Source: Spartobacteria bacterium
GTDB lineage: Bacteria > Verrucomicrobiota > Kiritimatiellia > RZYC01
DNA: 64,000 nt
Assembly: GCA_009930475.1 (NCBI GenBank)
Contig: RZYC01000007.1
Span: forward strand, 6,188 to 70,187
Direction: 5' to 3'
Shown: positions 4,181 to 43,878 of the stretch, one piece after another
Layout: each line of letters opens with the position of its first letter
Numbering within the stretch: the first letter of the stretch is position 1
The notes under the pieces: model-generated
What the model saw: only the letters and a program-made list of their open reading frames with translations
Told to the model about the DNA's origin: nothing
The model's database searches: none
Translations under genes and position numbers: made by a program

Positions 4181-4246
4181 ATTACTATTCTGCCTTTTTA
4201 TTATTTTTATCTTGATCTAATCACCCCCATCTGCCACCCTGGCACC
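4181..4246 (+). promoter_or_regulatory. Putative leaderless promoter of RAYT copy 1 with upstream 21-bp box
   Basis: ATTACTATTCTGCCTTTTTAT (4181-4201), N9, C, TTGATC (4212-17), N17, CACCCT (4235-40), N6, ATG 4247; same geometry at the other three copies; no Shine-Dalgarno. Confidence 0.6.
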
Positions 4247-5209
4247 ATGAAACATCGAATTAAACAATCCCCCCTCGCCTACTACCATTGCATGAGCCGA
4301 ATTGTCGGTCGTCAAATGCTGCTGGGCGAAATAGAAAAAGAACACATGCACTCTCTGATCCGACGCATTGAAGGCTTCACAGGGGTGCGTGTTCTGACCT
4401 ATGCAATCATGACAAATCATGTGCATCTACTCCTTGAAGAGCCTGATAGAGATACGGTTATTTCGGACGAAGAATTCAACCGACGGATGACATTCCTTTA
4501 TTCGGAGGCGGAGTTGGTTGACTTGAAAGAGCGCTGGGCGATGTGGGATGCGGCCAGTGTCGAAGCCGACAAGAGACGCTATCTGGTGCGAATGCACGAT
4601 ATCAGTGAATTCATGAAGCAATTAAAGCAGCGATTTTCTCGCTGGTACAATCAAAGGAATCAGCGATCAGGTGCATTGTGGGATACACGGTTTAAAAGCG
4701 TATTAGTCCAACCGGGATTACCATTACGAACGGTTGCGGCGTACATTGAAATGAATCCTGTTCGGGCAGGCATGGAAAAAAGTCCCCACTTCTACCGCTA
4801 TTGCGGCTTTGGGGAAGCCATTGGCGGAAATTCAAAAGCACGCGAGGGCATTCGCCTGATCACTAAATCGATGGATACCACATTGCATACCTGGCATGAA
4901 GTGTCAGCCCATTATTTGGAACGGATTCTAATGTATGATGACGTACGAAAACACCCGGAACAGGCATGCACTGATCACGATTATCTGCGCAGCAAGCTTG
5001 GTAATAAACTGAAACTGACCGATTTCGAACGACTTCTGTGTCGATGCCGTTACTTTACAGATGGACGGATTATTGGCAGCCGCGCCTTTGTTGACGCATA
5101 TTTTGAGGAACACAGACATGATTTTGGAACCAGGCGAATTTGCGGTGCGCGAAAAATCAAAGGTGGCTGGGATGCTCTTTTTGCGATAAGGGAACTTGTC
5201 GACTGGTAA
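4247..5209 (+). CDS. RAYT-like Y1 (HUH) tyrosine transposase, copy 1 (320 aa)
   Basis: YYHCMSRIVGR, HUH motif YAIMTNHVHLLL, GALWDTRFKSVLV, catalytic-Tyr motif AAYIEMNPVRAG. Confidence 0.9.
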   Translation: MKHRIKQSPLAYYHCMSRIVGRQMLLGEIEKEHMHSLIRRIEGFTGVRVLTYAIMTNHVHLLLEEPDRDTVISDEEFNRRMTFLYSEAELVDLKERWAMWDAASVEADKRRYLVRMHDISEFMKQLKQRFSRWYNQRNQRSGALWDTRFKSVLVQPGLPLRTVAAYIEMNPVRAGMEKSPHFYRYCGFGEAIGGNSKAREGIRLITKSMDTTLHTWHEVSAHYLERILMYDDVRKHPEQACTDHDYLRSKLGNKLKLTDFERLLCRCRYFTDGRIIGSRAFVDAYFEEHRHDFGTRRICGARKIKGGWDALFAIRELVDW

Positions 5210-5317
5210 CATCTATCATTTGACTTTTCCCTGTGATGCCTTAATAGTTCACTTTTACTTTGAGTTTATTTTTATGGAGCATCTTTTCTCAAACATACGA
5301 AATACGCAAGGATTCAC

Positions 5318-6067
5318 ATGACGTTCATACCCATTTTTCCAGCACCTGCCGCCTTGGTTTTCTCGCTGATGGAAAGTAGTGGACCAGGAAAGATCATCAT
5401 TTTAGTATTGGTCATTGCGTCCATTTTTGCATGGACTGTAATGATTTCGAAAGGACTAGATCTCTATAGTGTCAAACAGAAGAATCAACAGTTTAAAGAA
5501 GCATTTAAAGCCTACAACAATCCCACAACACTTCATGATCGCCGCACACAACTCAGCGTATGTCCACTTAGTGTCGTTTATTTTACGGGCTGCGAGAACC
5601 TGTATAAACTCATCGAAGAAATTGACGCGGCCAGAACGACGGACTCCGTACTAACGCAACCGCTTGGTTCATGGGATGACGACAAAACACATATCACGCC
5701 AAGCCAAATGGAGCTGGTTCGCAACCAAATTGATACGGAAACAGCGAATCAATATATAAAACTTGAGCAACACATGGGGATTCTCGCCAGTGCCGTAAGC
5801 ACCAGCCCCTTTTTAGGACTGCTCGGCACCGTATGGGGTGTTATGGAAGCATTTAGCGGCATGGCGGTTACGGGATCGGCGACATTGTCATCGGTCGCTC
5901 CGGGAATATCCAGTGCTCTGCTGACGACCATCGTTGGTCTGATTATCGCTATTCCATCTGCCATTGGATATAATTACCTATCCAACTGTATTCACAATCT
6001 TGGCATTGATATGGAAAATTTTGCAGATGAATTAACCACACGCATACACATTCAATTTGTCAAATAA
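5318..6067 (+). CDS. MotA/TolQ/ExbB proton channel protein
   Basis: LASAVSTSPFLGLLGTVWGVMEAF...VAPGISSALLTTIVGLIIAIPSAIGYN; AAGGA RBS before ATG. Confidence 0.92.
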   Translation: MTFIPIFPAPAALVFSLMESSGPGKIIILVLVIASIFAWTVMISKGLDLYSVKQKNQQFKEAFKAYNNPTTLHDRRTQLSVCPLSVVYFTGCENLYKLIEEIDAARTTDSVLTQPLGSWDDDKTHITPSQMELVRNQIDTETANQYIKLEQHMGILASAVSTSPFLGLLGTVWGVMEAFSGMAVTGSATLSSVAPGISSALLTTIVGLIIAIPSAIGYNYLSNCIHNLGIDMENFADELTTRIHIQFVK

Positions 6068-6091
6068 ACCATCCCGGCAGAGGCGCTACAC

Positions 6092-6502
6092 ATGAAACGG
6101 AAGCACAAACTGACCCGGGCAAGGCCAATCAGCGAGATTAATCTGACCCCGTTGATGGATTTGACGTTCATCCTCCTCATCACCTTCATTATCACTTTTC
6201 CTCTCATTGAACAGGGCATTCCCGTCAACCTGCCTCAAGGACAGGCCGAAGAACTCGACCCAGAAAAAACGCGCACCATTACATTGGATATCAGCGGGCA
6301 GGTGTATCTGGATGACCAGCCCATTGGAAAAGAGGCTTTAACCACGGAAATGAACACGCTGGCTCAGGCAAACCCCGAAATGATCATACTGGTACGAGCC
6401 GATGAAACCCTTAAATACGGCACAGTCGTAGACATCATGCGCATACTGAATCAAGCCGGCATGTCGAAGGTTGCACTGGTTACCCGTGCAGACAACGGTT
6501 AG
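6092..6502 (+). CDS. ExbD/TolR biopolymer transport protein
   Basis: EINLTPLMDLTFILLITFII, IPVNLP, VRADETLKYGTVVDIM. Confidence 0.92.
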   Translation: MKRKHKLTRARPISEINLTPLMDLTFILLITFIITFPLIEQGIPVNLPQGQAEELDPEKTRTITLDISGQVYLDDQPIGKEALTTEMNTLAQANPEMIILVRADETLKYGTVVDIMRILNQAGMSKVALVTRADNG

Positions 6503-6510
6503 TACGTAAA

Positions 6511-7374
6511 ATGGATAAGACGTTTAAAACATCTTTCAAAGTCAGTGCAATAGTGCATTCCTGCATTATTTTACTTTTGATTTTTATCCCCTTAATTCGC
6601 GGATGCATTGAAAAACTGCATCGTAAACCCCGTGAAATAGTCACTTTTGTAAGCTTGCAACAGGCACCTCCAGCGCCGGTCATCACAGAACCTGAACCCA
6701 AACCGGAATCACCCAATCCAAAAGAATCTATACCCGACAACATCAAAAAGATGCCTGAGCCCAAACCGTCTCCCACGCCCGTCCCCACAAAAAAAGCAAC
6801 GGCGACAGCGCAACCGACTATAACACCCACACCAACAGCGACGGCAGTAGCAACGGCGACAGCGACAGCAAAGCCATCCAGCACACCTAGACCACAACCA
6901 ACGGCCACACGAAAACCAAAGCCAAAGCCGACAAAAAAACCGATTCCTCGTCCAAAACCACGCATCATTTCGCGAAAGACACCCATGCCCCGCATTACGC
7001 AAAATGATATTCGGGATCTGCTTTCATCAGAACTATCATCCAGTCCGTCTCAAAACACGAGTAGCAGAAGCAGTGCAGGAAGCACCTCGACCACTCCACA
7101 GTGGTATTATCAGAACATCCAGCAAACCATGTACAACAACTGGAACCAGCCAACCAGTCTCACCGCCGGGATAGGACGCGTCGTGGACGTCAGACTGCGA
7201 ATAAACCGCGACGGATCAATCGCTTCTAAACGCATTACAGCCCCATCCGGCATCGGCGCACTAGATCGTTCTGTACAGGATGCACTTGATAAAACAGCGC
7301 GACTAAGCCCGCTTCCTTCTTCCATTAATGAACCCTACTTAGATATCACCGTTGAATTCATTTTAGAAAGATGA
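6511..7374 (+). CDS. TonB/TolA-like energy transducer
   Basis: N-terminal TM with SxxxH (SAIVHSC), long Pro/Thr/Lys-rich linker, C-terminal TonB_C-like domain (W..P...V.LRINRDGSI...SG..ALD.SV..A). Confidence 0.85.
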   Translation: MDKTFKTSFKVSAIVHSCIILLLIFIPLIRGCIEKLHRKPREIVTFVSLQQAPPAPVITEPEPKPESPNPKESIPDNIKKMPEPKPSPTPVPTKKATATAQPTITPTPTATAVATATATAKPSSTPRPQPTATRKPKPKPTKKPIPRPKPRIISRKTPMPRITQNDIRDLLSSELSSSPSQNTSSRSSAGSTSTTPQWYYQNIQQTMYNNWNQPTSLTAGIGRVVDVRLRINRDGSIASKRITAPSGIGALDRSVQDALDKTARLSPLPSSINEPYLDITVEFILER

Positions 7375-8393
7375 CCCAAATAACAAAAAAGCATTTCTCG
7401 CGAGGCATATTAGACCACATTAACCAGGTGCTAGGCCATGCATCCAGATCTCCCAGGGTAGGATTGGCTCTCGGGTCAGGAGCCGCACGTGGCTGTGCTC
7501 ATTTCGGAGTCATCGCCGCATTAAAAGAAGCGGGCATCCCCATTCACTGCATTGCCGGAACAAGCGCGGGCGCACTGGCAGGCGCATCGCTGGCATGCGG
7601 AACACTGGACGCCTTTGAAAAACGTGTACGATCACTTACGCTGAAAGACGTACTCTTTTTCTTCTCAGAACTACCGCTCAATCGTCAGGGATTAATCGAA
7701 GGGCGCCGCGTCATGGAATTCGTCCGTGAATTTATTCCGGTCGAACGCATCGAAGACCTGAGCATCCCGTTTCGATGCATTGCAACTGGGTTACAAACCG
7801 GCGAACCCATGGTATTTGATTCGGGCAACGTATTAGATGCTGTTCGCGCAAGTATCTCCATTCCCGGACTGTTTGTCCCTGTTCAGCGCAACGATAAATG
7901 GCTTATCGACGGTGCCATGTGTAATCCTGTACCCGTCGATCAGGTAAGGGAAATGGGTGCGGACTTCGTCATCGCAGTCGACGTAAACCAGCCCCACTCC
8001 AATCCTGATCCTCCCTCCCCCGCAGCATCGTTGGCGGAAAAATCCGACGAAGAGAAAACGACACCGGTTCCGTTCACCCCCATAAAAACAAAGCTCCAGG
8101 CATTGTTCTCACAAATTGAGTTCCCCCCGTGGAACCACAATACAGAGCAAAACAGTTCCAACCACCAGCCATTGAACATGATCGAAGTATCGCTGGTTGC
8201 TCTTCACCTTATGGAGGCTAGGCTGTCCCGTCTACAACTAACATTGCATCCACCAGATTTACTGATCGAACCTCACGCGTTTGACATCAACGTATTTGAA
8301 TTTTACCGAGCCAGCGAAATCATTGAACGCGGGCATGCCATCGCGCAACAGAGCTTGTCGTCTTTTCCTGCATTGCATCCCGATCACGACTAG
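7371..8393 (+). CDS. Patatin-like phospholipase (RssA/NTE family)
   Basis: GLALGSGAARG, GTSAG nucleophile motif, RASISIPGLF, LIDGA; ATGA overlap with the tonB-like gene. Confidence 0.92.
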   Translation: MTQITKKHFSRGILDHINQVLGHASRSPRVGLALGSGAARGCAHFGVIAALKEAGIPIHCIAGTSAGALAGASLACGTLDAFEKRVRSLTLKDVLFFFSELPLNRQGLIEGRRVMEFVREFIPVERIEDLSIPFRCIATGLQTGEPMVFDSGNVLDAVRASISIPGLFVPVQRNDKWLIDGAMCNPVPVDQVREMGADFVIAVDVNQPHSNPDPPSPAASLAEKSDEEKTTPVPFTPIKTKLQALFSQIEFPPWNHNTEQNSSNHQPLNMIEVSLVALHLMEARLSRLQLTLHPPDLLIEPHAFDINVFEFYRASEIIERGHAIAQQSLSSFPALHPDHD

Positions 8394-8451
8394 CTCCCAC
8401 CCCATGCACCATTAATCGACGGAATGAGATTTCCAATATTAATTTCGCTGA

Positions 8452-8488
8452 TGTCAATTTAAAATTTATAGTTAGTCTGATTTATTAG
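8452..8488 (-). repeat. Orphan copy of the RAYT-upstream unit (21-bp box, N9, ATTGACA) with no downstream gene
   Basis: Minus strand reads CTAATAAATCAGACTAACTAT-AAATTTTAA-ATTGACA; near-identical to the triplet at 50111-50229; lies between convergent genes. Confidence 0.7.
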
Positions 8489-8531
8489 GCGTGGGCGGGG
8501 CGGGCGAATCATTCTACCCGAAGCCTACGTT

Positions 8532-9086
8532 TTAGAATGAAACATTTGGAGCCTGTTCGGCACCTTCGACAGCTTCGAATGGCTTACGCGGGTTGAAGCC
8601 CATCATTCCGGCAAAAAAGACGGTGGGAATCTTGCGGATTCTGACGTTATAACCGCGAACGGCCTCATTATAACGACGACGTTCAACGGATATCCGATTT
8701 TCTGTCCCAGCAAGTTCGTCTTGGAGCGCCATGAAATTCTGGTTCGCTTTTAAGTCGGGATAATTTTCGGATACAACAATTAATCGGCCAAGAGCACTTT
8801 CAAGCATAGAACCGGCACGGGATTTATCTTCCTGCGTTTTGGCTGAGCCCCATTGACTGCGCAAACGGGTAATCTCTTCCAACAGTTCTTTTTCATGAGA
8901 GGCATAACCCTTTACCGTATTGACTAGATTGGGAATTAGGTCAAAGCGCCGTTGTAAAACGGTTTCTACATTGGCCCATGCGGTATTACAGGATTCGTCT
9001 TGTGCGACCAGTCCATTATACTGGCCAAAAAGCATCATGCCCATGACCACCGCCACTGCCAAAATAATCAATAATACTTTATTCAT
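8532..9086 (-). CDS. lemA: LemA family protein
   Basis: YNGLV...AWANVETVLQRRFDLIPNLVNTVKGYASHE...ENYPDLKANQNF..LQDELAGTENRISVERRRYN. Confidence 0.95.
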   Translation of the reverse strand: MNKVLLIILAVAVVMGMMLFGQYNGLVAQDESCNTAWANVETVLQRRFDLIPNLVNTVKGYASHEKELLEEITRLRSQWGSAKTQEDKSRAGSMLESALGRLIVVSENYPDLKANQNFMALQDELAGTENRISVERRRYNEAVRGYNVRIRKIPTVFFAGMMGFNPRKPFEAVEGAEQAPNVSF

Positions 9087-9822
9087 AACGTACTCCTATG
9101 CTGGTTTCCTTAAATTTGAGTGCGTCGACCGCGTTGATAACACACTCAATCGTCCGCATGAATGCGGAAAATACATTTTCGGCCTCTTTCGCTGTGATGG
9201 CACGGATTCCGTCCCGATGTTCCTGAATTTTGCGAATCGCTCCTAAATCAAAGGGGACATAGCGCGATAATTGCTCGATGGCTTCAAATTTTTTGGGCGG
9301 GACATCTTCGCGCTGATATAATCGCAAAACGGCTTTAAAAAGAGAAAAAAAGGACGATGATGACTCATCCAGTAACGCGATGATCTGTTTGGGTTTGGCT
9401 CCAGTAAGCAAAAACCGTTCTCTGAGCAGGATCAATTTCCCCCTCAGCTCTCGCTCCAGCTGCAAGCGCAAATGGGAATCCTCCAGAACCAGTTCCGCAA
9501 ACAGATCCTCTCCATAAAGGAGACGATGGCATTGCATAATATCAGAAAACTCTACGGGAAACGCGTCGGCCGAGGAAATCAGCTGGGCTTTTGTAAATAG
9601 TAAAGGGGAGGGATTCCCCTGTTTCGTCCAGCGCATCGCCATGGGGGAGAGCCTTTTCAGAATATCCAAATTCATCTCTGAAAGAATAATGAGTATATTG
9701 TAATCCGATTTTTTCTCATTGTAATCGCCGGCCGCCTGCGATCCGTACAGAATGACCGACACCAAATTACGTCCGAGCAATCGCTCCAGCTCGTGTGAAA
9801 AGTATCCACTGTCCATATTCAT
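9079..9822 (-). CDS. Nucleotidyltransferase-fold protein (LemA/TPM-associated)
   Basis: SVILYGSQAAGDY...SDYNILII pol-beta-type motif; sits between the TPM and lemA genes. Confidence 0.75.
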   Translation of the reverse strand: MNMDSGYFSHELERLLGRNLVSVILYGSQAAGDYNEKKSDYNILIILSEMNLDILKRLSPMAMRWTKQGNPSPLLFTKAQLISSADAFPVEFSDIMQCHRLLYGEDLFAELVLEDSHLRLQLERELRGKLILLRERFLLTGAKPKQIIALLDESSSSFFSLFKAVLRLYQREDVPPKKFEAIEQLSRYVPFDLGAIRKIQEHRDGIRAITAKEAENVFSAFMRTIECVINAVDALKFKETSIGVRYE

Positions 9823-9840
9823 ATAAGCATTATCCCTTCC

Positions 9841-10659
9841 TTACCAATCCCTGGAAGCACCGCCGCCACCCGACTGACCACCGCCAAAACCACCGAAACC
9901 GCTGCCGCCAAAACCGCCGCCAAAACCGCCATTCCCGCGTCCGCCGCCACCTTGCAGGGAAGACAGCAAAAATAAAGCCAGCCATGGATGACGAATCAGT
10001 TGGTAAATTATAAAAATGGAAAAAAGAAACATAAATATTTTTTTGTACCAGGGCAATGAGGCCCGCTGCTGCGTATCGATAAAACCCGGGGCAACGAGCC
10101 GACAGACATCTGACGCACCTTTATTGACCACCAAAGCGGGAGCCATACCGTCCCGCAATGCCTGCACCATCTTCTGTTCCAATGTGTCAAAGGCTGACAT
10201 ATCGGACAGCCCCAGAGCTGCGTTATAAATAATGCGCGCCTGCAGCTCACGTTTATTAACGTACAGAAGGATACCTGACCGTTTATTCAGCTGCCATTTC
10301 TCATACAGGAACTGCAGCTGCTCATCGGGATCATGAATAGAATCCCTTGAGGTGAAAATAACAACGCGTATGCGCGTTTTCAGCTCCAGCTGATGTAAAA
10401 GCTGTTCCCAGCGACGGGCGTCCTCTCGCTTGAGAAGGTGACCATCATCATTAACCAGACCGTGGTATCTCGCCTGTTCCAGCTGTGCCTGAGACTGGAC
10501 AGGAGCGAGCAAAAAAAAGACAAGCAGGAGAAAGCCGATGCGGCGGAAGAGTATACTCATCGTTTTAAATATATATGGCGTAATGCGAATCATAATGAAG
10601 GAATTTTGGCGTATGATTTCATTTATGCAAGATAATTCCCTATATCCCGGTGTGCCCAA
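9841..10659 (-). CDS. TPM domain protein with Gly-rich C-terminus (start uncertain, possibly ~10593)
   Basis: VNDDGHLL, GILLYV, C-terminal TM followed by GGGFGGSGFGGFGGGQSGGGGASRDW typical of TPM/YgcG family. Confidence 0.85.
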   Translation of the reverse strand: MGTPGYRELSCINEIIRQNSFIMIRITPYIFKTMSILFRRIGFLLLVFFLLAPVQSQAQLEQARYHGLVNDDGHLLKREDARRWEQLLHQLELKTRIRVVIFTSRDSIHDPDEQLQFLYEKWQLNKRSGILLYVNKRELQARIIYNAALGLSDMSAFDTLEQKMVQALRDGMAPALVVNKGASDVCRLVAPGFIDTQQRASLPWYKKIFMFLFSIFIIYQLIRHPWLALFLLSSLQGGGGRGNGGFGGGFGGSGFGGFGGGQSGGGGASRDW

Positions 10660-10668
10660 AAACGTGAT

Positions 10669-14140: not shown

Positions 14141-14200
14141 TCGCAGTTCCTCTCATCACTCAAATTGGCCGGCCACTTTTTCACGATTACACCCAGTTAA

Positions 14201-14287
14201 AAAAGTTCCAATCATTGGAACTTTTATTTTAAAAACGTCCAATCATTGGAACTTTTGTTTCAGAAAGTTCCAATCATCGGAACTTTT
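14201..14287. repeat. Tandem array of three 25-bp REP-like palindromes, 31-bp period (14201, 14232, 14263)
   Basis: AAAAGTTCCAATCATTGGAACTTTT / AAAACGTCCAATCATTGGAACTTTT / GAAAGTTCCAATCATCGGAACTTTT with 6-nt linkers ATTTTA and GTTTCA; 60 bp downstream of the RAYT copy 2 stop. Confidence 0.92.
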
Positions 14288-14347
14288 ATAAATAGCCCTT
14301 TTTCCACCAATTGGCAATATCCGTCGACAACGAATGAATCAAGCGGA

Positions 14348-15361
14348 TCAACACCAGTGCCCCAGATCACGAATCGTGTATAGATTCAGCCATCCCCCTC
14401 GCATTTTCCGTGCTCCCGTTTTTCGCGACGCGCTGAAATAATCCTGATTCTCGACAAAAAACGCCTCAACAAAGGCCTGCGACCCAAAAACCTGCCCATC
14501 TGAAAAATATCGATTTTTACATTGCAGCCGCTCAAAGTCCGAGATCTTCGTCCGGTGCCTAAGCTTATCCGGAATCATATCCCTATCCAACATCGCAAAA
14601 TGCGGATTTTTACGAACCTCATCATACATCAGAACACGTTCCCAATAAATGGATGACGCAGCACTCCACTCATGAATCTGCTCTTTCACCCGAACCGCAT
14701 CGTCCAGTGGTTCCACCCCTGACACCAACGTCATAATTCCTTTCCGCGCAGCATCTACGCCCCCCATGGCTTCACCCAAACCGCAAAACCGATACGTTTT
14801 TGGATCAGCCACGATACCCGCACGTACCGGATTCATTTCAATATACGAAGCCATCGTGCGCAAGGCCGCACCATCTTCCACCAGCACACTTTTAAAACGA
14901 TGTTCCCACAAGGTTCCGCACCGCCCCGTACGCCGATTATACCAGCAGGAAAACCGTTGCTTCACCTGCTTCATAAACTCGCTAATATCATGCATGCGTA
15001 TCAGATACCGATGCTTATCCTCTTCAACCAGCTCCGTCAACCCCGTCCATTCCCATTCCGCCCAGTGCTCCCGAATTTCATCTACCTCCGCTTCTGTATA
15101 TAAACAACGCAGCCGACGTAGCAGCTCGTCATCATCTATCGCATGCACCGCATCGCGATCCGGCTCCTCCAACAATAAGTGAACATGATTTGTCATCACC
15201 GCATAAGTTAGCACACGTACACCGGTAAAACCCTCCACTTTCCGGATTAATCGCCGCATGTGCTCTTTTTCGACATGGCCCATCAACATCGCTCGGCCCA
15301 CAATACGCGACATACAATGATAATAAGCCAGATGATCTCTTTTAATTCGTTTACGTCTCAT
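14348..15361 (-). CDS. RAYT-like Y1 (HUH) tyrosine transposase, copy 2 (337 aa, most divergent)
   Basis: YYHCMSRIVGR, YAVMTNHVHLLL, GTLWEHRFKSVLV, ASYIEMNPVRAG; start reassigned to ATG 15361 by homology and promoter geometry. Confidence 0.9.
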   Translation of the reverse strand: MRRKRIKRDHLAYYHCMSRIVGRAMLMGHVEKEHMRRLIRKVEGFTGVRVLTYAVMTNHVHLLLEEPDRDAVHAIDDDELLRRLRCLYTEAEVDEIREHWAEWEWTGLTELVEEDKHRYLIRMHDISEFMKQVKQRFSCWYNRRTGRCGTLWEHRFKSVLVEDGAALRTMASYIEMNPVRAGIVADPKTYRFCGLGEAMGGVDAARKGIMTLVSGVEPLDDAVRVKEQIHEWSAASSIYWERVLMYDEVRKNPHFAMLDRDMIPDKLRHRTKISDFERLQCKNRYFSDGQVFGSQAFVEAFFVENQDYFSASRKTGARKMRGGWLNLYTIRDLGHWC

Positions 15362-15428
15362 ACCGTCAAGATAAACACATGATTCGAGGTGTTGCAAGCA
15401 ATATAATATAGTAATAGTCTGGAGATAT
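15362..15428 (-). promoter_or_regulatory. Putative leaderless promoter of RAYT copy 2 with upstream 21-bp box
   Basis: Minus strand: ATATCTCCAGACTATTACTAT (15428-15408), N9, C, TTGCAA (15397-92), N18, TATCTT (15373-68), N6, ATG. Confidence 0.6.
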
Positions 15429-15446: not shown

Positions 15447-16508
15447 TCAGTCGTGATAATGACAGGCTACACTCCGGTCGGAAGAGACAGTAACCAGTTC
15501 GGGGGAAAGTAAATCGCACGCATCTTTTCGGTGTTTACAACGTGAGGCGAAAGCGCATCCATCAATCTTTTTTGTGGGATCAGGGACAGAACCGGGGATG
15601 CTTTCAATCCACTGTTGGTGTCCATGCAGTCGGGGTACGGCATGGAGCAATGCCTGCGTGTAGGGATGCATAGGGCTGTTCAGGACTGAAAGGACGGATC
15701 CGCTTTCAACAATTTTACCTGCATACATGACGTAGATATAATCGGCCACATCGGCGATCAGTCCCAGATTGTGGGAAATGAAGAGAATCGTGGTTCCGCG
15801 CTCGCGATTGATCGTGCGAAGCAACTGCATAATTTCTGCCTGAATCGTCACATCCAGTGCCGTGGTGGGCTCGTCGGCAATCAGCACTTCCGGGTCACAG
15901 GCCAATGCCATGGCTATCATCACCCGCTGCTGCTGGCCGCCGCTCAATTCACAGGGATAGCGGCGCCCTATTTTTTGCGGGTCGGGCAACTGAACTAATT
16001 CAAACAGATGCGCCAGCTCACTCTGATCGGCTCTGGTTTTCCGGTGCAAATAAATCGCTTCAGCGACCTGTGCACCAATACGAATCACTGGATTCAGCGA
16101 TCGACCCGGCTCCTGAAATACATACGCGACACGATGACCACGCAATCGCTGAAGTTCGCGTGACGACATATCCATCAGATTTTGGCCGGCGATTTCAATG
16201 CCGCCATGAACCTGACACGCCGGTCTGTCCGGCAATAATCGGGTCAGCGCAAATGCCGTAACACTTTTCCCGCAGCCACTCTCCCCGGCCATGGCACAAA
16301 AAGACCCTTTTTTAATCGAAAAGCTGACATCTCTAACGGCCGCAACGACTCCCTGCCCACTGTTAAATGTCACCGATAAATGATTCACATCGACAACGAA
16401 CTGTTCATTTTTTCCCATAGAGACATCCTGATTTTTCATGCGATGATATTCATGGTTATCTTGCTGACCCGCAAGCACTATATTTATTTGATTTCCATTA
16501 TTGGACAA
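15447..16508 (-). CDS. Oligopeptide ABC transporter ATP-binding protein (OppD/DppD-like; true start probably downstream)
   Basis: Walker [17 protein letters not shown], Walker [21 protein letters not shown]-terminal Cys cluster GCAFASRC...VACH. Confidence 0.93.
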
Positions 16509-30506: not shown

Positions 30507-30572
30507 ATAATAGAACAGTCTTACTATATGTTTTTTCTTGACCTTTATCACTGGATTGCGCATCGTGCAGAC
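30507..30572 (+). promoter_or_regulatory. Putative leaderless promoter of RAYT copy 3 with upstream 21-bp box
   Basis: ATAATAGAACAGTCTTACTAT (30507-27), N9, C, TTGACC (30538-43), N17, CATCGT (30561-66), N6, ATG 30573. Confidence 0.65.
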
Positions 30573-31535
30573 ATGAAAAACCGCATTAAACGTACGTCTT
30601 TAGCTTATTATCACTGCATGAGCCGAATTGTTGGCCGCCAGATGTTGCTGGGCACAAGTGAAAAAGAATATATGACGGCTCTGCTTCGCCGCATCGAAGG
30701 GTTTACCGGCGTGCGCATTCTGACCTATGCCCTTATGACCAACCACTTTCATCTGTTGCTGGAAGAACCTGATCGCGGTACGGTTATTTCCGATAGGGAA
30801 TTTCAGCGTCGAATGGCCTGCATTTATTCAATGGACGAACTAAATGAGCTGTATGAGCGATGGGCCTCGCTGGACGACGAAAGCACTGCCTTGGAAAAAC
30901 AGCGTTATCTGTCACGGATGCATGACATCAGCGAGTTTATGAAGCAAGTGAAACAACGGTTTTCCAGATGGTACAATCGGATGAATCATCGTTCGGGCAC
31001 GCTGTGGGATGCACGATTCAAGAGTGTACTGGTGGAGCCGGGCACACCGTTGCGAGTTGTTGCGGCCTATATTGAGATGAATCCCGTGCGGGCGGGAATG
31101 GAAACGGAGCCACACTTCTATCGCTACTGCGGTTTTGCCGAGGCGATGGGAGGCGGGTCAAAGGCGAGGGACGGCATCCGGACGATTGCCTCGTTCATGG
31201 ACACGGCCGCACCTGACTGGACGACCGTATCCGCGCACTACCTAGAACGCATTCTCATGTACGACGACGTGCGGAATCATCCGGAATGTGCCTGCACTGA
31301 TCATGATTATTTGCGAGAGAAACTGGGTCAAAAGTTGAAACTGACTGATTTCGAACGATTACTATGCCGCAGTCGCTATTTTATTGATGGACGTATCATC
31401 GGCAGCAAACAATTTGTTGAGCAGTTTTTTGTCGAACACAGGGATTATTTCGGGCAAAAACGAATTTCTGGAGCGCGAAAGATCAAGGGTGGCTGGACTG
31501 GGTTGTTTGCCATCAGAGACCTGGTGGACTGGTGA
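30573..31535 (+). CDS. RAYT-like Y1 (HUH) tyrosine transposase, copy 3 (320 aa)
   Basis: YYHCMSRIVGR, YALMTNHFHLLL, GTLWDARFKSVLV, AAYIEMNPVRAG; start ATG 30573 aligns with the other copies. Confidence 0.9.
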   Translation: MKNRIKRTSLAYYHCMSRIVGRQMLLGTSEKEYMTALLRRIEGFTGVRILTYALMTNHFHLLLEEPDRGTVISDREFQRRMACIYSMDELNELYERWASLDDESTALEKQRYLSRMHDISEFMKQVKQRFSRWYNRMNHRSGTLWDARFKSVLVEPGTPLRVVAAYIEMNPVRAGMETEPHFYRYCGFAEAMGGGSKARDGIRTIASFMDTAAPDWTTVSAHYLERILMYDDVRNHPECACTDHDYLREKLGQKLKLTDFERLLCRSRYFIDGRIIGSKQFVEQFFVEHRDYFGQKRISGARKIKGGWTGLFAIRDLVDW

Positions 31536-34093: not shown

Positions 34094-34107
34094 GCGCAGC
34101 GACAAAA

Positions 34108-34165
34108 CGGAAAGTTCCAGACATTGGAACTTTCCGCCTGAAAAGTTCCAATGTCTGGAACTTTT
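34108..34165. repeat. Inverted doublet of 25-bp REP-like palindromes, 31-bp spacing (34110, 34141)
   Basis: CGGAAAGTTCCAGACATTGGAACTTTCCG then AAAAGTTCCAATGTCTGGAACTTTT; the two cores are exact reverse complements; between convergent genes. Confidence 0.9.
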
Positions 34166-35021: not shown

Positions 35022-35193
35022 ATTGTTCCTTAGTCGTATCCCTGATTATTTACTTCTCTTAAAAGAACACAGACGAGGTGCTCTTTGCACGAATAAAATA
35101 CAATTAATATTTAAGTTTTGCCGTTTATCATTATATTTCCAATCCATTGATTTTATTAGATTATTCAACACTTAGGAAAAGAAGTATACGACC

Positions 35194-35889: not shown

Positions 35890-35929
35890 AGGGGAACATC
35901 GCGATCCAAAGGCGCGATGTCCCGAATCG

Positions 35930-36979: not shown

Positions 36980-37046
36980 AATTGTAGAAGTATGTCGGTC
37001 AGCATACGAACAGAACCGTCACGGAGCAATGCAAAAGCATGAATTG

Positions 37047-37250
37047 TTACGCCCAGATATTTATGTGCTGTCCCAGACGCCGAGCAATAGGCTGGGGCTG
37101 ATGAACGGATACTGAATCGACTTGATCCTGCGAGGAATCAACGGAGGACTGCACCCCGGGCCGGGAGGGGATCCCTGATGCCTGCCGATATTCCGACATC
37201 ATTTTCATCATAGATGCGACGGACACCTGTTCTGCGGAGATTGTATTCAT
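37047..37250 (-). CDS. Small protein resembling the YjfB putative motility family
   Basis: 67 aa; EQVSVASMMK near the N-terminus and C-terminal LGQHINIWA resemble YjfB-type QVSVAVLKK ... LG.NID..A; AAGGG upstream. Confidence 0.45.
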   Translation of the reverse strand: MNTISAEQVSVASMMKMMSEYRQASGIPSRPGVQSSVDSSQDQVDSVSVHQPQPIARRLGQHINIWA

Positions 37251-37292
37251 ACGTGTTCATCCCTTAATTGACGCGTGGTTGATCTGCTGCGA

Positions 37293-39215
37293 TCAACTGA
37301 AGCAACCCTCATGCCACATGCAGAGATTTACGAGCGGCCAGAGCTTGAGGGGATGAACCGGCATATCGCCTGAAAGCCATGCCTGAACGGCCATCGGATT
37401 GAACAGGTCCCTGCTAAGTGATGACGATGCAATCTGTTCCTGAACAAAGGATTTCATCCATCCGTCCATCCAGTCAAAGACGGGAACAGGGAAACTCATT
37501 TTGGGGCGTTGTACGATGGATGATGGAATGCGGGATGCAAACGTCTGCCGCAGCAGCACTTTAGAATCGATCAGATTTTTTTGCACAATATCCTGCACAT
37601 TCAAAGCGGCGGAAACCGTTTTGGCATCGGCACTCCGCCAATCCAGCCGCAGCCGGTCGGGCAATGAAAAAGCCAGCTCAACCAGTCGATGATCCGTAAA
37701 AGGAACACGCACCTCTACCGATGCGGCCATGGAACTGGAATCCACCCGCATAAGCAACCCTTCCAGATTAACCCGCAGATGAACCTGCATGATGCGGTCC
37801 AGCGTGGAGGCATCGGGATATTGCGCATAAAGCGCATCATAATAGCTTCTCACAGCCCGGTCTTCACCCAAAGCGGCATAGATATCGTTATGCAGCCACA
37901 GCCGTTTTTCACCCGGCAGCAGCCATGAATTCAGCAAAAGGTGCTGTGTGGTGAGATCCGGAAGATATTCCTGACCGTAACATCGGCTGATGGCCTGATC
38001 CAGCATACTCCATTTTATCCGGGGCTTGGAACGGCGTGACGCACGGTCGTAATCATAGGCTGCAAAATAGGGCAGTGTATATCCACCAAAAATTTCGTCG
38101 GCACCCTCGCCACTCAGAGCGACGGTGTAATCCTGACGCAATGCTTTAGACAACATATAGATGGGCACTTCATTCGGCGTTGAAAGGGGCTGTCCGCCGT
38201 TTTGTATCAAATAGGACCATACGTCGGGATACTCTTGCGGATCCAAATCGATCTCCCGACAATTCATGCCGAACCGTTGTGCCGCGCTGCGCACATAAGG
38301 CCATTCATTAAATCCGTCCTGTGCATATCCCACACTGTAGGCATCGTAGTGATGATCCGAATGGTCTGCCGCCAAACCGGATACAATCGACGAATCCAGT
38401 CCGCCGCTTAAAAAGCCACCCAACGGAACATCACTGATGAGCCGACACTTAACCGCATCGCACATGATCTCCATCAGGGATTCCTGTGCACGCCGATCGG
38501 TTAAAGGCGGCTTACTGCGGCTCGCATAACAGGGCGGTTTCCAATACTGTTTTTCCATGCGCTCGCCCTTCGCCGTCAAACGCATCCAATATCCCGGCTC
38601 CAACAGAAAAATGCCATCCAGCAGGGTCTGCCGCCCCATATTAATCCGAATCGTAGAGAGATAATGGGATACCGCCGCCAGATTCAGCGAAGGACGGCCG
38701 GGCATCCATTGCAGCATGGCCCGCATGGTGGAGGCAAAGCAAAAGACACCATCGACGTCTCCATAAAAAAGCGGCTTGACACCTAGTCGGTCTCTGGCCA
38801 CGAACAATGATTCGTCCGATGGCGTATATATGGCCATCGCAAACATGCCGTTGAAACGTTCCAGACAATCCGCTCCCCAGAACAGGTACGAACGCAGCAC
38901 CACCTCGGAATCACTGGACGTATGGCAAGTGATTCCGGCGGCATGCAGCTCTGATCTCAATTCCCGAAAATTATATAGCTCCCCATTATAAACAAGCACC
39001 GTCCCCGTAACCGCATCAATCAGTGGCTGGTGGCCCCCTTGAACATCGATGATCGACAAACGACGATGCCCCAGCCCGACATGCGGTGCGTGATAAAACC
39101 CTTCATCATCCGGCCCCCGCAATGCCATCGTGCGTACGGATCGCTGTAGTCGTCCATTCCATTCCTGACCGTCCTGACTGCTGCTTAAATGATAGTATCC
39201 GCTCAATCCGCACAT
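37293..39215 (-). CDS. asnB: Asparagine synthase (glutamine-hydrolysing) family amidotransferase
   Basis: MCG N-terminal nucleophile, HRRLSIID, YNGELYN, ARDRLGVKPL, FLSGGLDSS, LSGEGADEIFGGY, EVRVPFTD. Confidence 0.93.
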   Translation of the reverse strand: MCGLSGYYHLSSSQDGQEWNGRLQRSVRTMALRGPDDEGFYHAPHVGLGHRRLSIIDVQGGHQPLIDAVTGTVLVYNGELYNFRELRSELHAAGITCHTSSDSEVVLRSYLFWGADCLERFNGMFAMAIYTPSDESLFVARDRLGVKPLFYGDVDGVFCFASTMRAMLQWMPGRPSLNLAAVSHYLSTIRINMGRQTLLDGIFLLEPGYWMRLTAKGERMEKQYWKPPCYASRSKPPLTDRRAQESLMEIMCDAVKCRLISDVPLGGFLSGGLDSSIVSGLAADHSDHHYDAYSVGYAQDGFNEWPYVRSAAQRFGMNCREIDLDPQEYPDVWSYLIQNGGQPLSTPNEVPIYMLSKALRQDYTVALSGEGADEIFGGYTLPYFAAYDYDRASRRSKPRIKWSMLDQAISRCYGQEYLPDLTTQHLLLNSWLLPGEKRLWLHNDIYAALGEDRAVRSYYDALYAQYPDASTLDRIMQVHLRVNLEGLLMRVDSSSMAASVEVRVPFTDHRLVELAFSLPDRLRLDWRSADAKTVSAALNVQDIVQKNLIDSKVLLRQTFASRIPSSIVQRPKMSFPVPVFDWMDGWMKSFVQEQIASSSLSRDLFNPMAVQAWLSGDMPVHPLKLWPLVNLCMWHEGCFS

Positions 39216-39239
39216 AAAATATCCATCTGTTTACCGGTC

Positions 39240-39899
39240 TTAACGACCATCCTCCACCCAACGGACGGCTGCCTGAACAAACTGCGTCGCATTATCAATG
39301 GCCAGTTTTTTCTTTATGCGGGCACGATGGGCTTCTACGGTCTTGACGCTCAACCCCAGCTTCTCGGCCACCTGCTGGGATGAAAATCCGTTGCCGATCC
39401 ACTCAAAGACTTCCAGTTCCCGATCACTGAGACTCTCAACCCCTTTTACGTTGCGGCCGCCGTCGATAAACTGGCGCAACATCTTGTCCTTCACGGCTTC
39501 GCTAGCGTACAGATCTCCGGCTAAAACGGTTTCAATCGCATCAATGACCGATTCATCGGCATCTTCTTTCATAAGATAACCATTCGCTCCGGCACGCATA
39601 GACCGCTCGGCATACATGGATTCGTCGTGCATCGACAACACCAGCATGGGAAAGTTCAATCCCTGACTTCGGATTTTCTTGATCAGTTCCAGCCCGTTTT
39701 TGTCTTTCAACGACAAATCGACCAGCATCACATCCGGCACCGTTCCTGCCTCTACCAGTGCCAAGGCTTCTTCCACACTGCCTGCTTCGGCAACGACTTC
39801 CAAATGATCCACCTGATTAATAACAGCACTCAGGCCGTGCCTTACAATCGGATGGTCATCAACAAGAAACACACCCTTAACCGCGTGCGGATCTACCAT
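39240..39899 (-). CDS. NarL/FixJ-family response regulator (REC + LuxR HTH)
   Basis: VDDHPIVRHG, LVDLSL, VLSMH, GYLMK, LSDRELEV...LSVKTVEAHR. Confidence 0.95.
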   Translation of the reverse strand: MVDPHAVKGVFLVDDHPIVRHGLSAVINQVDHLEVVAEAGSVEEALALVEAGTVPDVMLVDLSLKDKNGLELIKKIRSQGLNFPMLVLSMHDESMYAERSMRAGANGYLMKEDADESVIDAIETVLAGDLYASEAVKDKMLRQFIDGGRNVKGVESLSDRELEVFEWIGNGFSSQQVAEKLGLSVKTVEAHRARIKKKLAIDNATQFVQAAVRWVEDGR

Positions 39900-39901
39900 G
39901 T

Positions 39902-40735
39902 TTATCTCCCCTTGTTTCGACTGGCCAGGTCAAGCTGCTGCCTTTCGCGTGGCGTTAAGCTGCCTATGCCAAATTTTGCGATTTTGTCCAAAATCCTGTT
40001 TAAATCCTGCTCTGTGGGAACAATCACTTCTTTGGTTGCGTGATAATCGTCATCGTAAACCATTTTCATACGCGCGCGGCGATACCATTTCCACGGCCAA
40101 GGAAACGGCTTTTTTAAAATACAGCACCAAGTAAACAAACCGCCAAAAAAAGCGCCTGCCAAGTGCACCACATGTGCTACGCCACCTGAAAAACTGGATA
40201 TGGATGTTAACAGTTCAATACCAGCAAATCCCACAACCATCATCCATGCCTTCAGCTGGATCGGAATGACAAAGAAAAGCAGCAGGGTCAGTTCTCTCTG
40301 CGGCCATAAAACACCGAATGATGCCAGCAGCCCGTAAATAGCTCCGGATGCACCAATACACATGGCCCTGTACCCTAAAGCAATCCATAACACGCCGCCA
40401 AATAACCCGCTGAGCAAATACATTATGATGAAGTTTTTGGTTCCGGTGGTTCGTTCGGTTTCCGGCCCCATAAAAAACAGCATCAGCATATTAAATATCA
40501 GGTGAAACGGATTGGATGGTGAATGCAGGAACATGTAAGTGAAAAACTGCCAGACCTGTCCATGCGTAATGCCGTAATAGGACAAACCAAACACATTGGT
40601 AAACCAGTCACCAAAAACAATCTGTAGAATATAAACAGCAATATTGGCCACTAACAGGTACTTCACACCCGGCGAAATGCCGCCGCCCCGAAGCACAAAC
40701 CGGTTCATGGATGAATTATAATCGTACAAGCTCAT
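39902..40735 (-). CDS. Rhomboid family intramembrane serine protease
   Basis: WQFFTYMFLH, HLIFNM, GASG catalytic Ser, HLAG catalytic His; C-terminal LNRILDKIAKFGIGSLT. Confidence 0.92.
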   Translation of the reverse strand: MSLYDYNSSMNRFVLRGGGISPGVKYLLVANIAVYILQIVFGDWFTNVFGLSYYGITHGQVWQFFTYMFLHSPSNPFHLIFNMLMLFFMGPETERTTGTKNFIIMYLLSGLFGGVLWIALGYRAMCIGASGAIYGLLASFGVLWPQRELTLLLFFVIPIQLKAWMMVVGFAGIELLTSISSFSGGVAHVVHLAGAFFGGLFTWCCILKKPFPWPWKWYRRARMKMVYDDDYHATKEVIVPTEQDLNRILDKIAKFGIGSLTPRERQQLDLASRNKGR

Positions 40736-40770
40736 ACCAGCAAAAATCCTTTCATTGTCGCCGAAAAGTA

Positions 40771-43131
40771 CTAGGGGCTTTTGCTATGAACATCAAGTAC
40801 ATCCCGCAATTTTGCAATCAGCACAGCGTGCTTAAATGGTTTATGTATGACGTGCAGTTCGGTTTGATCCATTTCGTGGGCCGCAAGTAAATCATCTCCG
40901 AATCCCGTGCAAAATATCACCGGAATCCCGGGATGGATGAGTTGCATGGCCTTATATACATCGGGCCCCGTCATATCTGTCATTCGCACATCGATAATCA
41001 TGGCTGAAATTACTTCCTGATGCTGCTCAAAAAGGGCGAGGGCATCACGACCTGATTGTGCTGATAAGACCCGGTAGCCGGAATGAGTCAATGAACTGGA
41101 AATCATATTAAGGACATACACATCATCATCCACTGCAAGAATAAGTTCATTACTTGATATTGTTTGAATTTTTGGCAATGGAGATATGACCGGCTCAAGG
41201 GAGCACAACGAAACGGGAGCGGTCAGCTCGGGAGAGTCCGTGTTTAACGGAGCCTTCTCAAGTTCTGTTTTTGTAGACGACTTATCACTCGTACAACCAT
41301 GCGGCTCCTCGCAGGCTTCTTCCGAAGGATCTTTTTGATCTCCGAACGAATCAAGCAGTGACCCGACAACACAGGCAAATGTAGGTAGCAATTTCTTGCC
41401 GTTTTCGGCATCAAATCGATGTCGAATTACTGTATAGATGAGAAATCCCCGCATCAGCTTATGTTCATCAAACCAGGCTGCAGCAACAACGGATAATCCA
41501 TTAACTCCAGTGGGCGCAACCGCCCCATCCGGTATTTCTTGATATGTAAAAGCGCCGCGCTCCAAATCGACCATGACATCGCGCTTCTGCTCCGGCGATA
41601 AAAGATCCATGGGGGAGTCATCCCCGAATAAACAGGTTTCCAAATCCGGTTCATGACCTCCGACGCGCACATACAGTGCTGCGGAATCCGTGCCCAGCGC
41701 ATGGGATACTTCATGCAGAACAGCGTGCGGCTCCCGTGTGCATGATTCAACCAGGTTGTGTATACACTGGAACAGATGCCGGCCCCTACATAACAATGAT
41801 TCCTGCCGACGCATATCGGTGACGTTTCGCAGCACGAGAAGGCCTCGTCCGGGGTGCGCCTCCTTCACCAGGGCACCAGAATAAAATGACCAGCGCCACA
41901 CCTGTTCTGACCCGTCAGCACAAAGCAGCCGGCCTTCATAACTGGCCGTACCATCAATGAGTGCCTTTGATAATACGTGTTCTACCGCATGCTTTGTAGT
42001 CTGCGGCAGATCGGCATAGACCGACCGGCCAGCCTCCAGCTCCACAGGGAAATCCATACAGCCCATAATCGAAACAATATACCCGTCCAGCGAAACCTCT
42101 ATGCAGCACAGTCCGGCGTCCTCTGCAACGGTCTGTAAGAGGGGTAAAAAAAAGTGACTGGGCATTACACCGTTTTCTTCCGTTTTTTTTGTATCCCGCC
42201 ATCGGCAGCTCAGTAAAATCCAGCTACCCGCCCACAACATTCCCGCCAGACTCCAGATCATCATAGGACGATCAGGTGCATACACCTCCCAAAAGGGCAT
42301 GACCAAAGCGATATACGCAACACGTTCGCCACGAACATAAATGGGCATACCAAACTTACAACTGTAATCCCCTCGTGCCGAAGGACTACCGTACGATGCA
42401 ATCTGCGACCCCGTGGAGAATGCATGCAGGACATCATTTAATTGCTCGCGATCTTTTTCAAATATCAGCCCCCTGTACTGAGGGTCGGGATGCGAAAGAA
42501 TGAAAAGATTGCGGTCAAGCAAAACTCCATATCCTTCTCTGACAGGGATCTCTGCCGACAACATGTCCACCATACGCTGTTGCGATACCACGCCGGCCAA
42601 TGCCGCAATGCGCCAATCGTACACGATAGGCAATGCGAAAATTATTTTACTCCCCTCATCAGCACCGATGCGAACACCTCCCACATAAAACGATTGCCTT
42701 TCTTTGGCGAAAGCATAATCAAGACAGGATAAAACAGCCGGTGGCACCTGACCGCATAGAATCGGTTTATCCCCCGTTATATCAGCATAAACCCCATCAT
42801 CATAACGCCCTGACATATTTCCCGCTAACGAAACAGCATCAAAGAAATGACTAAAATACCCCTGCCGCACACTGCTACAAAAGGCGTCTACCGGCAGTGC
42901 ATTCGTCTTCTGCAAGTCCGCTTGCATCACGACAGACAAATCCTTCATCTGCGTATACATGCTATCTATCTGATGTTCAACATATCCCGCGTATTCGATC
43001 ATCTTGTCTTCTGCCAAACGATGCATTCGCTGTACACCCCCACACACAAACACCACCAGTAAAGCAAATATAAATAAAAGCCGAAACCCCGCCCTTTTTG
43101 TCATACAGCGTTTTAAACGACAGATTCGCAT
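40771..43131 (-). CDS. Membrane sensor with Cache-like, PAS-like and GAF-like regions and a C-terminal receiver, apparently without a kinase core
   Basis: Two TMs flanking a Cache-like region (LDRNLFILSHPDP), C-terminal REC (LAVDDD...IIDVRM...FCTG...HKP); no H-box, N-box or G-boxes visible; start chosen by AGGAG RBS. Confidence 0.75.
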   Translation of the reverse strand: MRICRLKRCMTKRAGFRLLFIFALLVVFVCGGVQRMHRLAEDKMIEYAGYVEHQIDSMYTQMKDLSVVMQADLQKTNALPVDAFCSSVRQGYFSHFFDAVSLAGNMSGRYDDGVYADITGDKPILCGQVPPAVLSCLDYAFAKERQSFYVGGVRIGADEGSKIIFALPIVYDWRIAALAGVVSQQRMVDMLSAEIPVREGYGVLLDRNLFILSHPDPQYRGLIFEKDREQLNDVLHAFSTGSQIASYGSPSARGDYSCKFGMPIYVRGERVAYIALVMPFWEVYAPDRPMMIWSLAGMLWAGSWILLSCRWRDTKKTEENGVMPSHFFLPLLQTVAEDAGLCCIEVSLDGYIVSIMGCMDFPVELEAGRSVYADLPQTTKHAVEHVLSKALIDGTASYEGRLLCADGSEQVWRWSFYSGALVKEAHPGRGLLVLRNVTDMRRQESLLCRGRHLFQCIHNLVESCTREPHAVLHEVSHALGTDSAALYVRVGGHEPDLETCLFGDDSPMDLLSPEQKRDVMVDLERGAFTYQEIPDGAVAPTGVNGLSVVAAAWFDEHKLMRGFLIYTVIRHRFDAENGKKLLPTFACVVGSLLDSFGDQKDPSEEACEEPHGCTSDKSSTKTELEKAPLNTDSPELTAPVSLCSLEPVISPLPKIQTISSNELILAVDDDVYVLNMISSSLTHSGYRVLSAQSGRDALALFEQHQEVISAMIIDVRMTDMTGPDVYKAMQLIHPGIPVIFCTGFGDDLLAAHEMDQTELHVIHKPFKHAVLIAKLRDVLDVHSKSP

Positions 43132-43238
43132 TGCATTCCCTACTCCTTCTAAAACAAACAGACAATCAGGCCGAAGAAGCCGGCCAATCAACAAGCATGT
43201 CCCCGCCACCTTCTTCGACCCGATTCACACCAAGCAAA

Positions 43239-43736
43239 TTACAAAGATGCTAATGCCGACGCATAATCAGGTTCCTGCGTGATTTCCGGAACCAGTTCCG
43301 TGTATTTGACGACACCCTTTTCATCAATAATAATGACCGCCCTTGCCAACAGTCCCTTGACAGGCGAATCAACAATACCCAGTCCATAGGACTCTGCAAA
43401 TGCCGGATTTCTGAAAGCAGAAAGCGACTCAACATTCTCAAGCCCTTCGGCTCCGCAAAAACGAGCATGCGCAAACGGCAAATCCATGGAGACACAGAGC
43501 ACAACCACATCAGATCGCCCGGCCGCCTCCGCATTGAAACGACGCACCGAAGCGGCGCAGACAGGAGTATCTACACTAGGAAAAACATTTAATACGATGA
43601 TTTTCCCCTTCCAGTCGGCCAATGCCACATCACTCAGATCCGTTTTTGTCAATGCAAACGCAGGAGCAATACTTCCCGTCGCCGGTAATTCCCCGCAGGT
43701 CTGAACACTGTTTCCTTCTAACGCAGTCGTTGCCAT
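43239..43736 (-). CDS. tpx: Thiol peroxidase (atypical 2-Cys peroxiredoxin)
   Basis: [32 protein letters not shown]. Confidence 0.96.
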
Positions 43737-43812
43737 ATTTCATCCTCCTTATGTGATTAATTAGAACGGAGCACAGTTTATAATAAAAAACTCGAATTAT
43801 ACAACCAGCAAA

Positions 43813-43878
43813 TATATTATTCTGACTTACTATCATTTTCCTCTTGACCCGCCCCTGCAAATACCCCATCGTACCTGC
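43813..43878 (+). promoter_or_regulatory. Putative leaderless promoter of RAYT copy 4 with upstream 21-bp box
   Basis: TATATTATTCTGACTTACTAT (43813-33), N9, C, TTGACC (43844-49), N17, CATCGT (43867-72), N6, ATG 43879. Confidence 0.65.

Follow-up and report, generated by a model that had tools for sequence, protein, structure and literature searches.

A candidate promoter-operator module upstream of four RAYT-like HUH/Y1 genes of a Spartobacteria bacterium and of their relatives in Verrucomicrobiota

This report concerns four RAYT-like genes (c1 to c4) and the stretch of about 66 bp that precedes each of them in a window of 64,000 nucleotides from Spartobacteria bacterium (assembly GCA_009930475.1, contig RZYC01000007.1, positions 6,188 to 70,187, forward strand). 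The 66-bp stretch is best read as the promoter-operator module of a RAYT-like HUH/Y1 gene family, and the four genes as members of an expanded family of the TIRYT / TnpA_Y1 subclass 2.1 type; a probability of about 0.6 is given to this explanation as a whole, including the roles that it assigns to promoter and box. The module would include a sigma-70-type promoter with a good -35 hexamer (CTTGAC or TTGCA, -35 to -30), a spacer of 17-18 nt and a weak -10 hexamer (CAYNNT, with A-11 and T-7). RNA polymerase would start at, or 1-2 nt from, the A of the ATG, and the resulting mRNA, which would carry neither leader nor ribosome-binding site, would be translated as a leaderless message. The box found upstream of the -35 hexamer would most likely be a binding site for the product of the gene, which would tune its own transcription; the HUH domain may in addition act on DNA at this same site. 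Transposases are known to bind ends overlapping their own promoter and thereby to regulate their own transcription.

The four genes and their upstream regions

Positions relative to the genes are numbered with the A of the ATG as +1, and upstream regions are right-aligned on the ATG. The features are sorted by copy. PWM, position weight matrix; aa, amino acids.

4181-4201, + strand: c1 box, degenerate, TTCTGCCTTTTTAT, about -66 to -46; PWM match.
4212-4217, + strand: c1 -35-like hexamer TTGATC, -35 to -30.
4235-4240, + strand: c1 -10-like hexamer CACCCT, directly preceded by TGC; 6 nt to the ATG at 4247.
4247-5209, + strand: c1, RAYT/TIRYT-like gene, 320 aa; N-terminal Y1_Tnp domain and C-terminal extension of about 130 aa.
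15408-15428, - strand: c2 box, CCAGACTATTACTAT, in the register of the 337-aa subfamily, 2 nt longer; PWM match.
15368-15397, - strand: c2 core; TTGCAA (15397-15392), 18-nt spacer, TATCTT (15373-15368), 6 nt, ATG at 15361.
14348-15361, - strand: c2, RAYT/TIRYT-like gene, 337 aa.
30507-30527, + strand: c3 box, TAGAACAGTCTTACTAT, in which the TAGAC-A-GTCTA palindrome is best preserved; PWM match.
30538-30566, + strand: c3 core; TTGACC (30538-30543), 17-nt spacer, CATCGT (30561-30566), 6 nt, ATG at 30573.
30573-31535, + strand: c3, RAYT/TIRYT-like gene, 320 aa.
43813-43833, + strand: c4 box, TTCTGACTTACTAT; PWM match.
43844-43872, + strand: c4 core; TTGACC (43844-43849), 17-nt spacer, CATCGT (43867-43872), 6 nt, ATG at 43879.
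43879-44841, + strand: c4, RAYT/TIRYT-like gene, 320 aa; AlphaFold model with a predicted local distance difference test score (pLDDT) of 89.5, best fold match TnpA_REP 4ER8.

The -35-like hexamer lies at -35 to -30 in c1, c3 and c4 and at -36 to -31 in c2, and the -10-like hexamer at -12 to -7 in all four (spacer of 17 nt, 18 in c2). The former matches the consensus at 4-5 of 6 positions and its location is invariant; the latter matches TATAAT at 2-4 of 6 positions and mostly keeps A-11 and T-7. An earlier note on this DNA had described the architecture as identical in the four copies. Its coordinates, strings and layout were recovered in each of them, including the TTGACC and CATCGT shared exactly by c3 and c4, but the sequences are not identical: c1, c3 and c4 are 59-73% identical to each other at -66 to -30 and 34-41% at -29 to -1. 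Farther upstream their identity is 29-34%, which is background, and after the stop codon 20-28%. To align c2, which belongs to the other subfamily, the spacer has to be shifted by 1 nt and the box by 2 nt.

Within the 21-mer that forms the box, only the right half (CTTACTAT) is conserved. The palindrome proposed for it (ATAGTWAG-N5-CTWACTAT) is not significant: 2-5 of the 8 arm pairs match, with shuffle p values of 0.08-0.8. Only c3 keeps a part of the older TAGAC-A-GTCTA palindrome. The few differences between strains are found at degenerate positions of the consensus (three substitutions between the c4 box and that of its sister-strain ortholog L033, one in the c1 box).

The proteins encoded by c1 to c4 show 58-74% mutual identity and carry an N-terminal IS200-like Y1 domain (PF01797, E = 1e-11 to 1e-14). 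Their scores with REP_Tyr_transpos (NCBIfam NF047646) are 56-64, below the cut-off of 80. The HUH motif (H58/H60) and the catalytic Tyr166 (the tyrosine of YIEMNP) are invariant across the copies. The fold of the full-length AlphaFold model of c4 is closest to TnpA_REP 4ER8, followed by the TnpA proteins of ISDra2 and IS608. The C-terminal part of about 130 aa has no Pfam match even at E = 10, nothing was returned by Foldseek for the isolated model of this part (pLDDT 70), and a profile search of PDB with the protein gave matches to its N-terminal part only and none to the extension. These Y1 proteins, with HUH motif and catalytic tyrosine, are longer (320-337 aa) than classical RAYTs, as is the case for TIRYTs. 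A protein search found about 90 paralogs under one "Spartobacteria bacterium" metagenome-assembled genome label. They are 55-77% identical and synteny is kept between strains; these features give no sign of recent paralog movement.

Conservation in paralogs and across Verrucomicrobiota

Nine further independent paralogs were obtained from Logan contigs of the same sample and of a sister strain, which gives 13 copies with c1 to c4. L and P numbers refer to loci and proteins, respectively. The T of TTG(AC/CA/AT) is found at -35 or -36 in 13/13 paralogs vs 4/139 other genes of the same contigs, so that the motif and spacing reported in the earlier note extend to the nine further copies. The eight copies of the 320-aa type share the block AT.ATTC.G.CTTA.TAT.ATTTTT..CTTGACC, followed by CA...T at -12 to -7. 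In these eight copies and in c2, a -10-like hexamer lies 6-7 nt from the ATG, with T-7 in 9/9 and A-11 in 7/9; it is unclear or devoid of A-11 in the other four copies, which are of the 337-aa type. All 13 genes start with ATG. A Shine-Dalgarno sequence (GGAG, GAGG or AGGA at -18 to -4) precedes none of them, vs about 42% of the other genes of the window (for example TAAGGAGGATGAAAT-ATG before an ahpC-like gene). Among the other genes of the organism, TANNNT shows no peak at 6-8 nt from the start; the 6-8 nt geometry is therefore a property of the gene family and not of the organism.

The same layout (TTGNNN, 17-18 nt spacer, NANNNT, 6-8 nt, ATG) is also found at three unrelated genes of the window: 16563 (+ strand), 15447-16439 (- strand) and 9841-10593 (- strand). 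A few other starts of leaderless type may therefore exist in this organism.

The comparison was extended to 80 loci encoding proteins 35-42% identical to those of the window (one genome per species), from Opitutales, Puniceicoccales, Akkermansiaceae, Luteolibacter, Prosthecobacter, Kiritimatiellia and others; 72 of them were usable for the spacing of the -10 hexamer. In each locus, the 200 nt upstream were searched for the best pair of sigma-70-like hexamers, and the gap between the end of its -10 and the earliest in-frame start codon was measured. These gaps peak sharply at 6-8 nt, the value found in 25/72 loci; 200 shuffles of the upstream regions gave 1.3 such loci on average and never more than 5. 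The starts of these 25 loci are all ATG and open the conserved N-terminus MR.AR(I/W)(K/L). GeneMarkS-2 recognises leaderless genes by a Pribnow box at this distance of 6-8 nt (PMC6028130). The -10-like hexamer 6 nt from the ATG and the lack of a Shine-Dalgarno sequence, from which the earlier note had proposed leaderless mRNA, are thus the features expected of such genes, and they recur in about a third of the distant relatives. Leaderless transcription of the c1-c4 family is a well-supported prediction. About a third of the family members across the phylum, with all window copies among them, have the module set directly against the start codon, as in a leaderless gene. Other members, mostly of Kiritimatiellia type, have leaders of 40-60 nt with GGAGG (L045, L047, L061, L067, L071).

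The N-terminus M-x2-3-R-I-K...(A)YYH is kept from the window copies down to relatives with 33% identity, and residues 11-19 form strand beta-1 of the AlphaFold fold. Public gene calls are discordant: some give 297-305 aa, with a start at Met16 (P0001, P0010, P0012, P0013, P0018), others 347-390 aa, with a start far upstream (P0007, P0014, P0024, P0033). This range of 297-390 aa results from the lack of a ribosome-binding site that would anchor the start. The conserved ATG is the consistent and right start of the genes of this family.

In the relatives, the sequence found just upstream of the -35 is GGGACAG(G/A)C..., GTGACAG... or a perfect palindrome, TAGAC-A-GTCTA. The palindrome is present in the Puniceicoccales loci L008-L012 and in the sister-strain paralog L044. 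L044 and the Puniceicoccales loci read TAGACAGTCTA; the four window copies have only NCWGNCTWA. The window boxes, which read NCWGNCTWA-YTAT, are a decayed local version of the GACAG box found throughout the family. GACAG-type boxes occur in the 80 relatives at 3.7/kb upstream in forward orientation, vs 0.2/kb in coding sequences and 0.4/kb downstream in either orientation. They are found upstream in forward orientation in 38/80 loci, often as multiple copies, and downstream in inverted orientation in 9/80, which is near background. In the relatives, the separation between GACAG and the -35 falls into two clusters, 16-18 and 24-26 nt; in the window subfamilies it is 22-24 and 24-26 nt. Given these boxes and their fixed distance, the element that the earlier note had placed upstream of the -35 is a real element of the family. 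The box remains beside the -35 in relatives with long leaders (e.g. L003, L045, L061). Since it adjoins the -35 even in leadered relatives, it is tied to the promoter and not to the coding sequence. In 11 paralogs, neither a conserved sequence nor an inverted box was found 3' of the stop codon. The box is one-sided (5' only), and the two-sided arrangement of TIRtrons is therefore not found here.

Some relatives carry other arrangements. L012 has a second copy of the box about 30 nt upstream, with a different central base (TTAGACTGTCTAA vs TTAGACAGTCTAA). Five metagenome loci (L023, L025, L026, L028, L029; 32-36% identity) have three direct repeats of TCTTAAGG or TCTCAAGG, spaced by about 11 nt and located about 75-105 nt upstream, together with an ordinary AAGGAG ribosome-binding site; they differ in the type of box and in the mode of expression, but not in the position of the box.

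Role of the box and alternative explanations

The box is probably bound by the product of the gene that it precedes. We infer this because its sequence tracks the protein lineage and because it occurs only with this family. The lineage-linked variants are GGGACAG, TAGACAGTCTA, NCWGNCTWA and the triple repeats of TCTTAAGG in the 33%-identical relatives L023-L029.

Several observations weigh against the promoter-operator reading or parts of it. Shared descent alone would make the box sequence and the protein subfamily co-vary. No DNA-binding fold can be assigned to the C-terminal extension, so that binding by the encoded protein is purely inferred. The -10 hexamers are weak (2-4/6), and a plain consensus scan does not call promoters at c1 to c4. 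The -10 is ill-defined in L035 and L043b, which belong to the 337-aa subfamily, and the sister-strain ortholog of c4 has CATCGC, with loss of T-7. The sole RNA trace is a metatranscriptome contig of 238 nt, of sister-strain type, which lies within c4 and maps no start.

Copies of the box and -35 that precede no gene were located by PWM. Those found in the window are as follows.

8452-8490, - strand: single gene-less box + -35 unit, TAATAAATCAGACTAACTATAAATTTTAAATTGACA, in a convergent intergenic gap; kept in the sister strain (L037:14171).
50110-50229, - strand: tandem triplet of gene-less box + -35 units, with offsets of 37 and 45 bp, in a convergent intergenic gap.

Both face the 3' end of the adjacent + strand gene. 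The triplet occurs with small indels in other samples, and assemblies break at this repeat. Further orphan units are found at L017:2410, which reads TTGACC-N16-TATAAT, L034:11260 and L041:126. The box, or the box and -35, is duplicated in tandem upstream of L048, L068, L080, L096, L120 and L124. No coding remnant was found after the gene-less units. Inverted orphan boxes located 3' of c1 and c4 could be seen as closing cargo-carrying box-to-box units; this arrangement was rejected, as c2, c3 and the L017, L034 and L041 orphans do not fit it. The gap between c4 and the inverted triplet is spanned by a single open reading frame of 1680 aa (44959-50001, + strand). Two arrays of 25-bp palindromes (AAAAGTTCCAATGATTGGAACTTTT and variants), unrelated to the box, are found at 14190-14345 (- strand, after the stop of c2) and at 34110-34165.

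The box could be mainly a site of DNA processing by the HUH protein (a one-sided end, a nick site or an origin-like site) with the promoter merely inside it, the gene-less copies and tandem ladders of the window and of relatives being by-products of cutting and rejoining. Conserved H58/H60 and Tyr166, a fold like that of TnpA_REP and of the ISDra2 and IS608 TnpA, and the correspondence of the box of the relatives to GGGGWSAS, the motif in the repeats that flank TIRYT genes (PMC3733652), are in line with such a role. Set against these are the missing second end (nothing is conserved past the stop codon, and the 9/80 inverted downstream boxes are near background), the divergence (55-77% identity) and synteny of the paralogs, which do not suggest recent movement, and the fixed phase to the -35, which argues for a link with transcription. 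The window boxes are also devoid of hairpin-forming potential and have no matching right end, which speaks against the subterminal hairpin suggested in the earlier note. Taken as the main role, DNA processing is unlikely, yet it is a live rival, and nicking or local duplication at the box would be compatible with the promoter-operator explanation. The same note had put forward TTGAY as a target or cleavage pentamer like that of ISDra2. In ISDra2, the pentamer is found at the element boundary, on the 5' side of a subterminal hairpin. The protein is structurally related to the ISDra2 TnpA and c1 does have TTGAT, but 12/13 paralogs have TTGAC or TTGCA instead, neither hairpin nor element boundary is found here, and the hexamer holds canonical -35 spacing to the -10 and to the start codon; this proposal is highly improbable. 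Two related candidates were rejected. A REPtron is opposed by the lack of REP (repetitive extragenic palindromic) hairpins with a 5'-GTAG foot in the flanks and by the NF047646 scores (56-64 vs 80), and an IS200/IS605 element of ISDra2 type by the lack of hairpins and of a right end, by the restriction of TTGAT to c1 and by the 55-77% identity of the paralogs.

That the box serves a host factor with no relation to the encoded protein (either a global regulator or the C-terminal domain of the RNA polymerase alpha subunit, in an UP-element-like contact) is distinctly unlikely. Class I activator sites typically lie where the box does, at about -50 to -60, an A/T-rich tract separates it from the -35, and gene-less copies have a -35, one of them with a perfect TATAAT (L017:2410). 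However, in the approximately 200 kb read from this organism the box is found only with this family or as an orphan, never before other genes; its sequence shifts with the protein lineage, which is unexpected for a single factor, and its conserved core holds G and C and is therefore not simply A/T-rich. An improbable alternative bears on the leaderless start: transcription could begin farther upstream, from a box-internal YTATAAT or by read-through, and yield a leadered mRNA, the spacing from TTGAC to CAYNNT being a coincidence of shared descent. TATAAT, TATATG, TATCAT or TATTAT does occur within the box among the copies, the proposed -10 hexamers are weak, and L045, L047, L061, L067 and L071 have leaders with GGAGG. 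The box-internal TATAAT lacks a conserved -35 partner, though, and relatives with a GGGACAG box keep the 6-8 nt geometry without having TATAAT there. A leader of 35-40 nt would still be devoid of Shine-Dalgarno sequence in an organism that uses it, and the spacings are kept where other upstream DNA has decayed to background identity. The box as -35 of a second promoter, or its TATAAT as a -10, was rejected for want of a conserved partner element.

Relation to known systems and significance

TIRYT genes and TIRtrons are flanked by inverted repeats that carry GGGG[AT][CG]A[CG] (Di Nocera, De Gregorio and Rocco 2013, PMC3733652), and TIRYT genes have been equated with TnpA_Y1 subclass 2.1 (Quentin et al. 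2018, PMC6006769). The family described here resembles them by its long RAYT-like Y1/HUH protein with a C-terminal extension, by the absence of REP hairpins, by the GGGACAG-type boxes of the relatives, which fit GGGGWSAS at a roughly constant distance from the gene, and by the occurrence of the boxes both as single and as clustered copies. It differs from TIRtrons in that the box is 5' only, without terminal inverted repeat, and is strongly degenerate in the window. Class 2 genes are described as low-copy, whereas a single genome has about 90 diverged paralogs of this family. Both the protein class and the GGGGWSAS motif were already published; the location of the motif within a fixed promoter-like module and the leaderless-type abutment are new, and no description of a fixed promoter phase or leaderless geometry was found in the literature on TIRYT or subclass 2.1 (PMC3733652, PMC6006769).

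Leaderless genes of Actinobacteria and Deinococcus (M. tuberculosis, D. deserti; GeneMarkS-2 group C) likewise have a Pribnow-type box 6-8 nt before the AUG and no Shine-Dalgarno sequence (PMC6028130). Phyla of the Verrucomicrobiota/Kiritimatiellota type are not among the leaderless-rich ones named in that paper (PMC6028130). In contrast to Actinobacteria and Deinococcus, the geometry is confined here to one gene family, in which a strong -35 and an upstream box accompany a weak -10. Elements of the IS1, IS2 and IS30 types have the transposase promoter within the left inverted repeat, and it is autoregulated by transposase binding. The present genes are similar in that a putative recognition sequence of their own protein adjoins or overlaps the -35; they differ by the lack of a right end, of a target duplication and of recent copies. 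With IS200/IS605 elements (IS608, ISDra2) and TnpA_REP (4ER8), they share the N-terminal fold and the catalytic motifs, but not the subterminal or REP hairpins, the GTAG foot or TnpB. Genes of the c1-c4 type look resident or domesticated.

A wider proposal is rather unlikely: the tens of paralogs per genome across Verrucomicrobiota, leaderless and with an own-product box, would form a condition-gated, domesticated HUH DNA-processing system with a dedicated mode of expression, of a kind that has no published description to date. Leaderless messages follow a different route of translation, in other bacteria preferentially under stress. If this proposal were true, such a system would have the gene-less box-promoter units as its scattered cis sites or as decoys.

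If the leaderless start is true, this would be a clear case of leaderless expression used by a single gene family, in a phylum that has not been noted for this mode, and would hint at a joint regulation of the approximately 90 paralogs. The true start codons are fixed where gene callers now miscall them, and the published GGGGWSAS "inverted repeat" motif would be linked to a promoter instead of a transposon end. In the promoter-operator reading, the poorly understood HUH proteins of TIRYT / subclass 2.1 type would gain a defined control region of about 66 bp, made of a box, a -35, a weak -10 and an AUG at +1.

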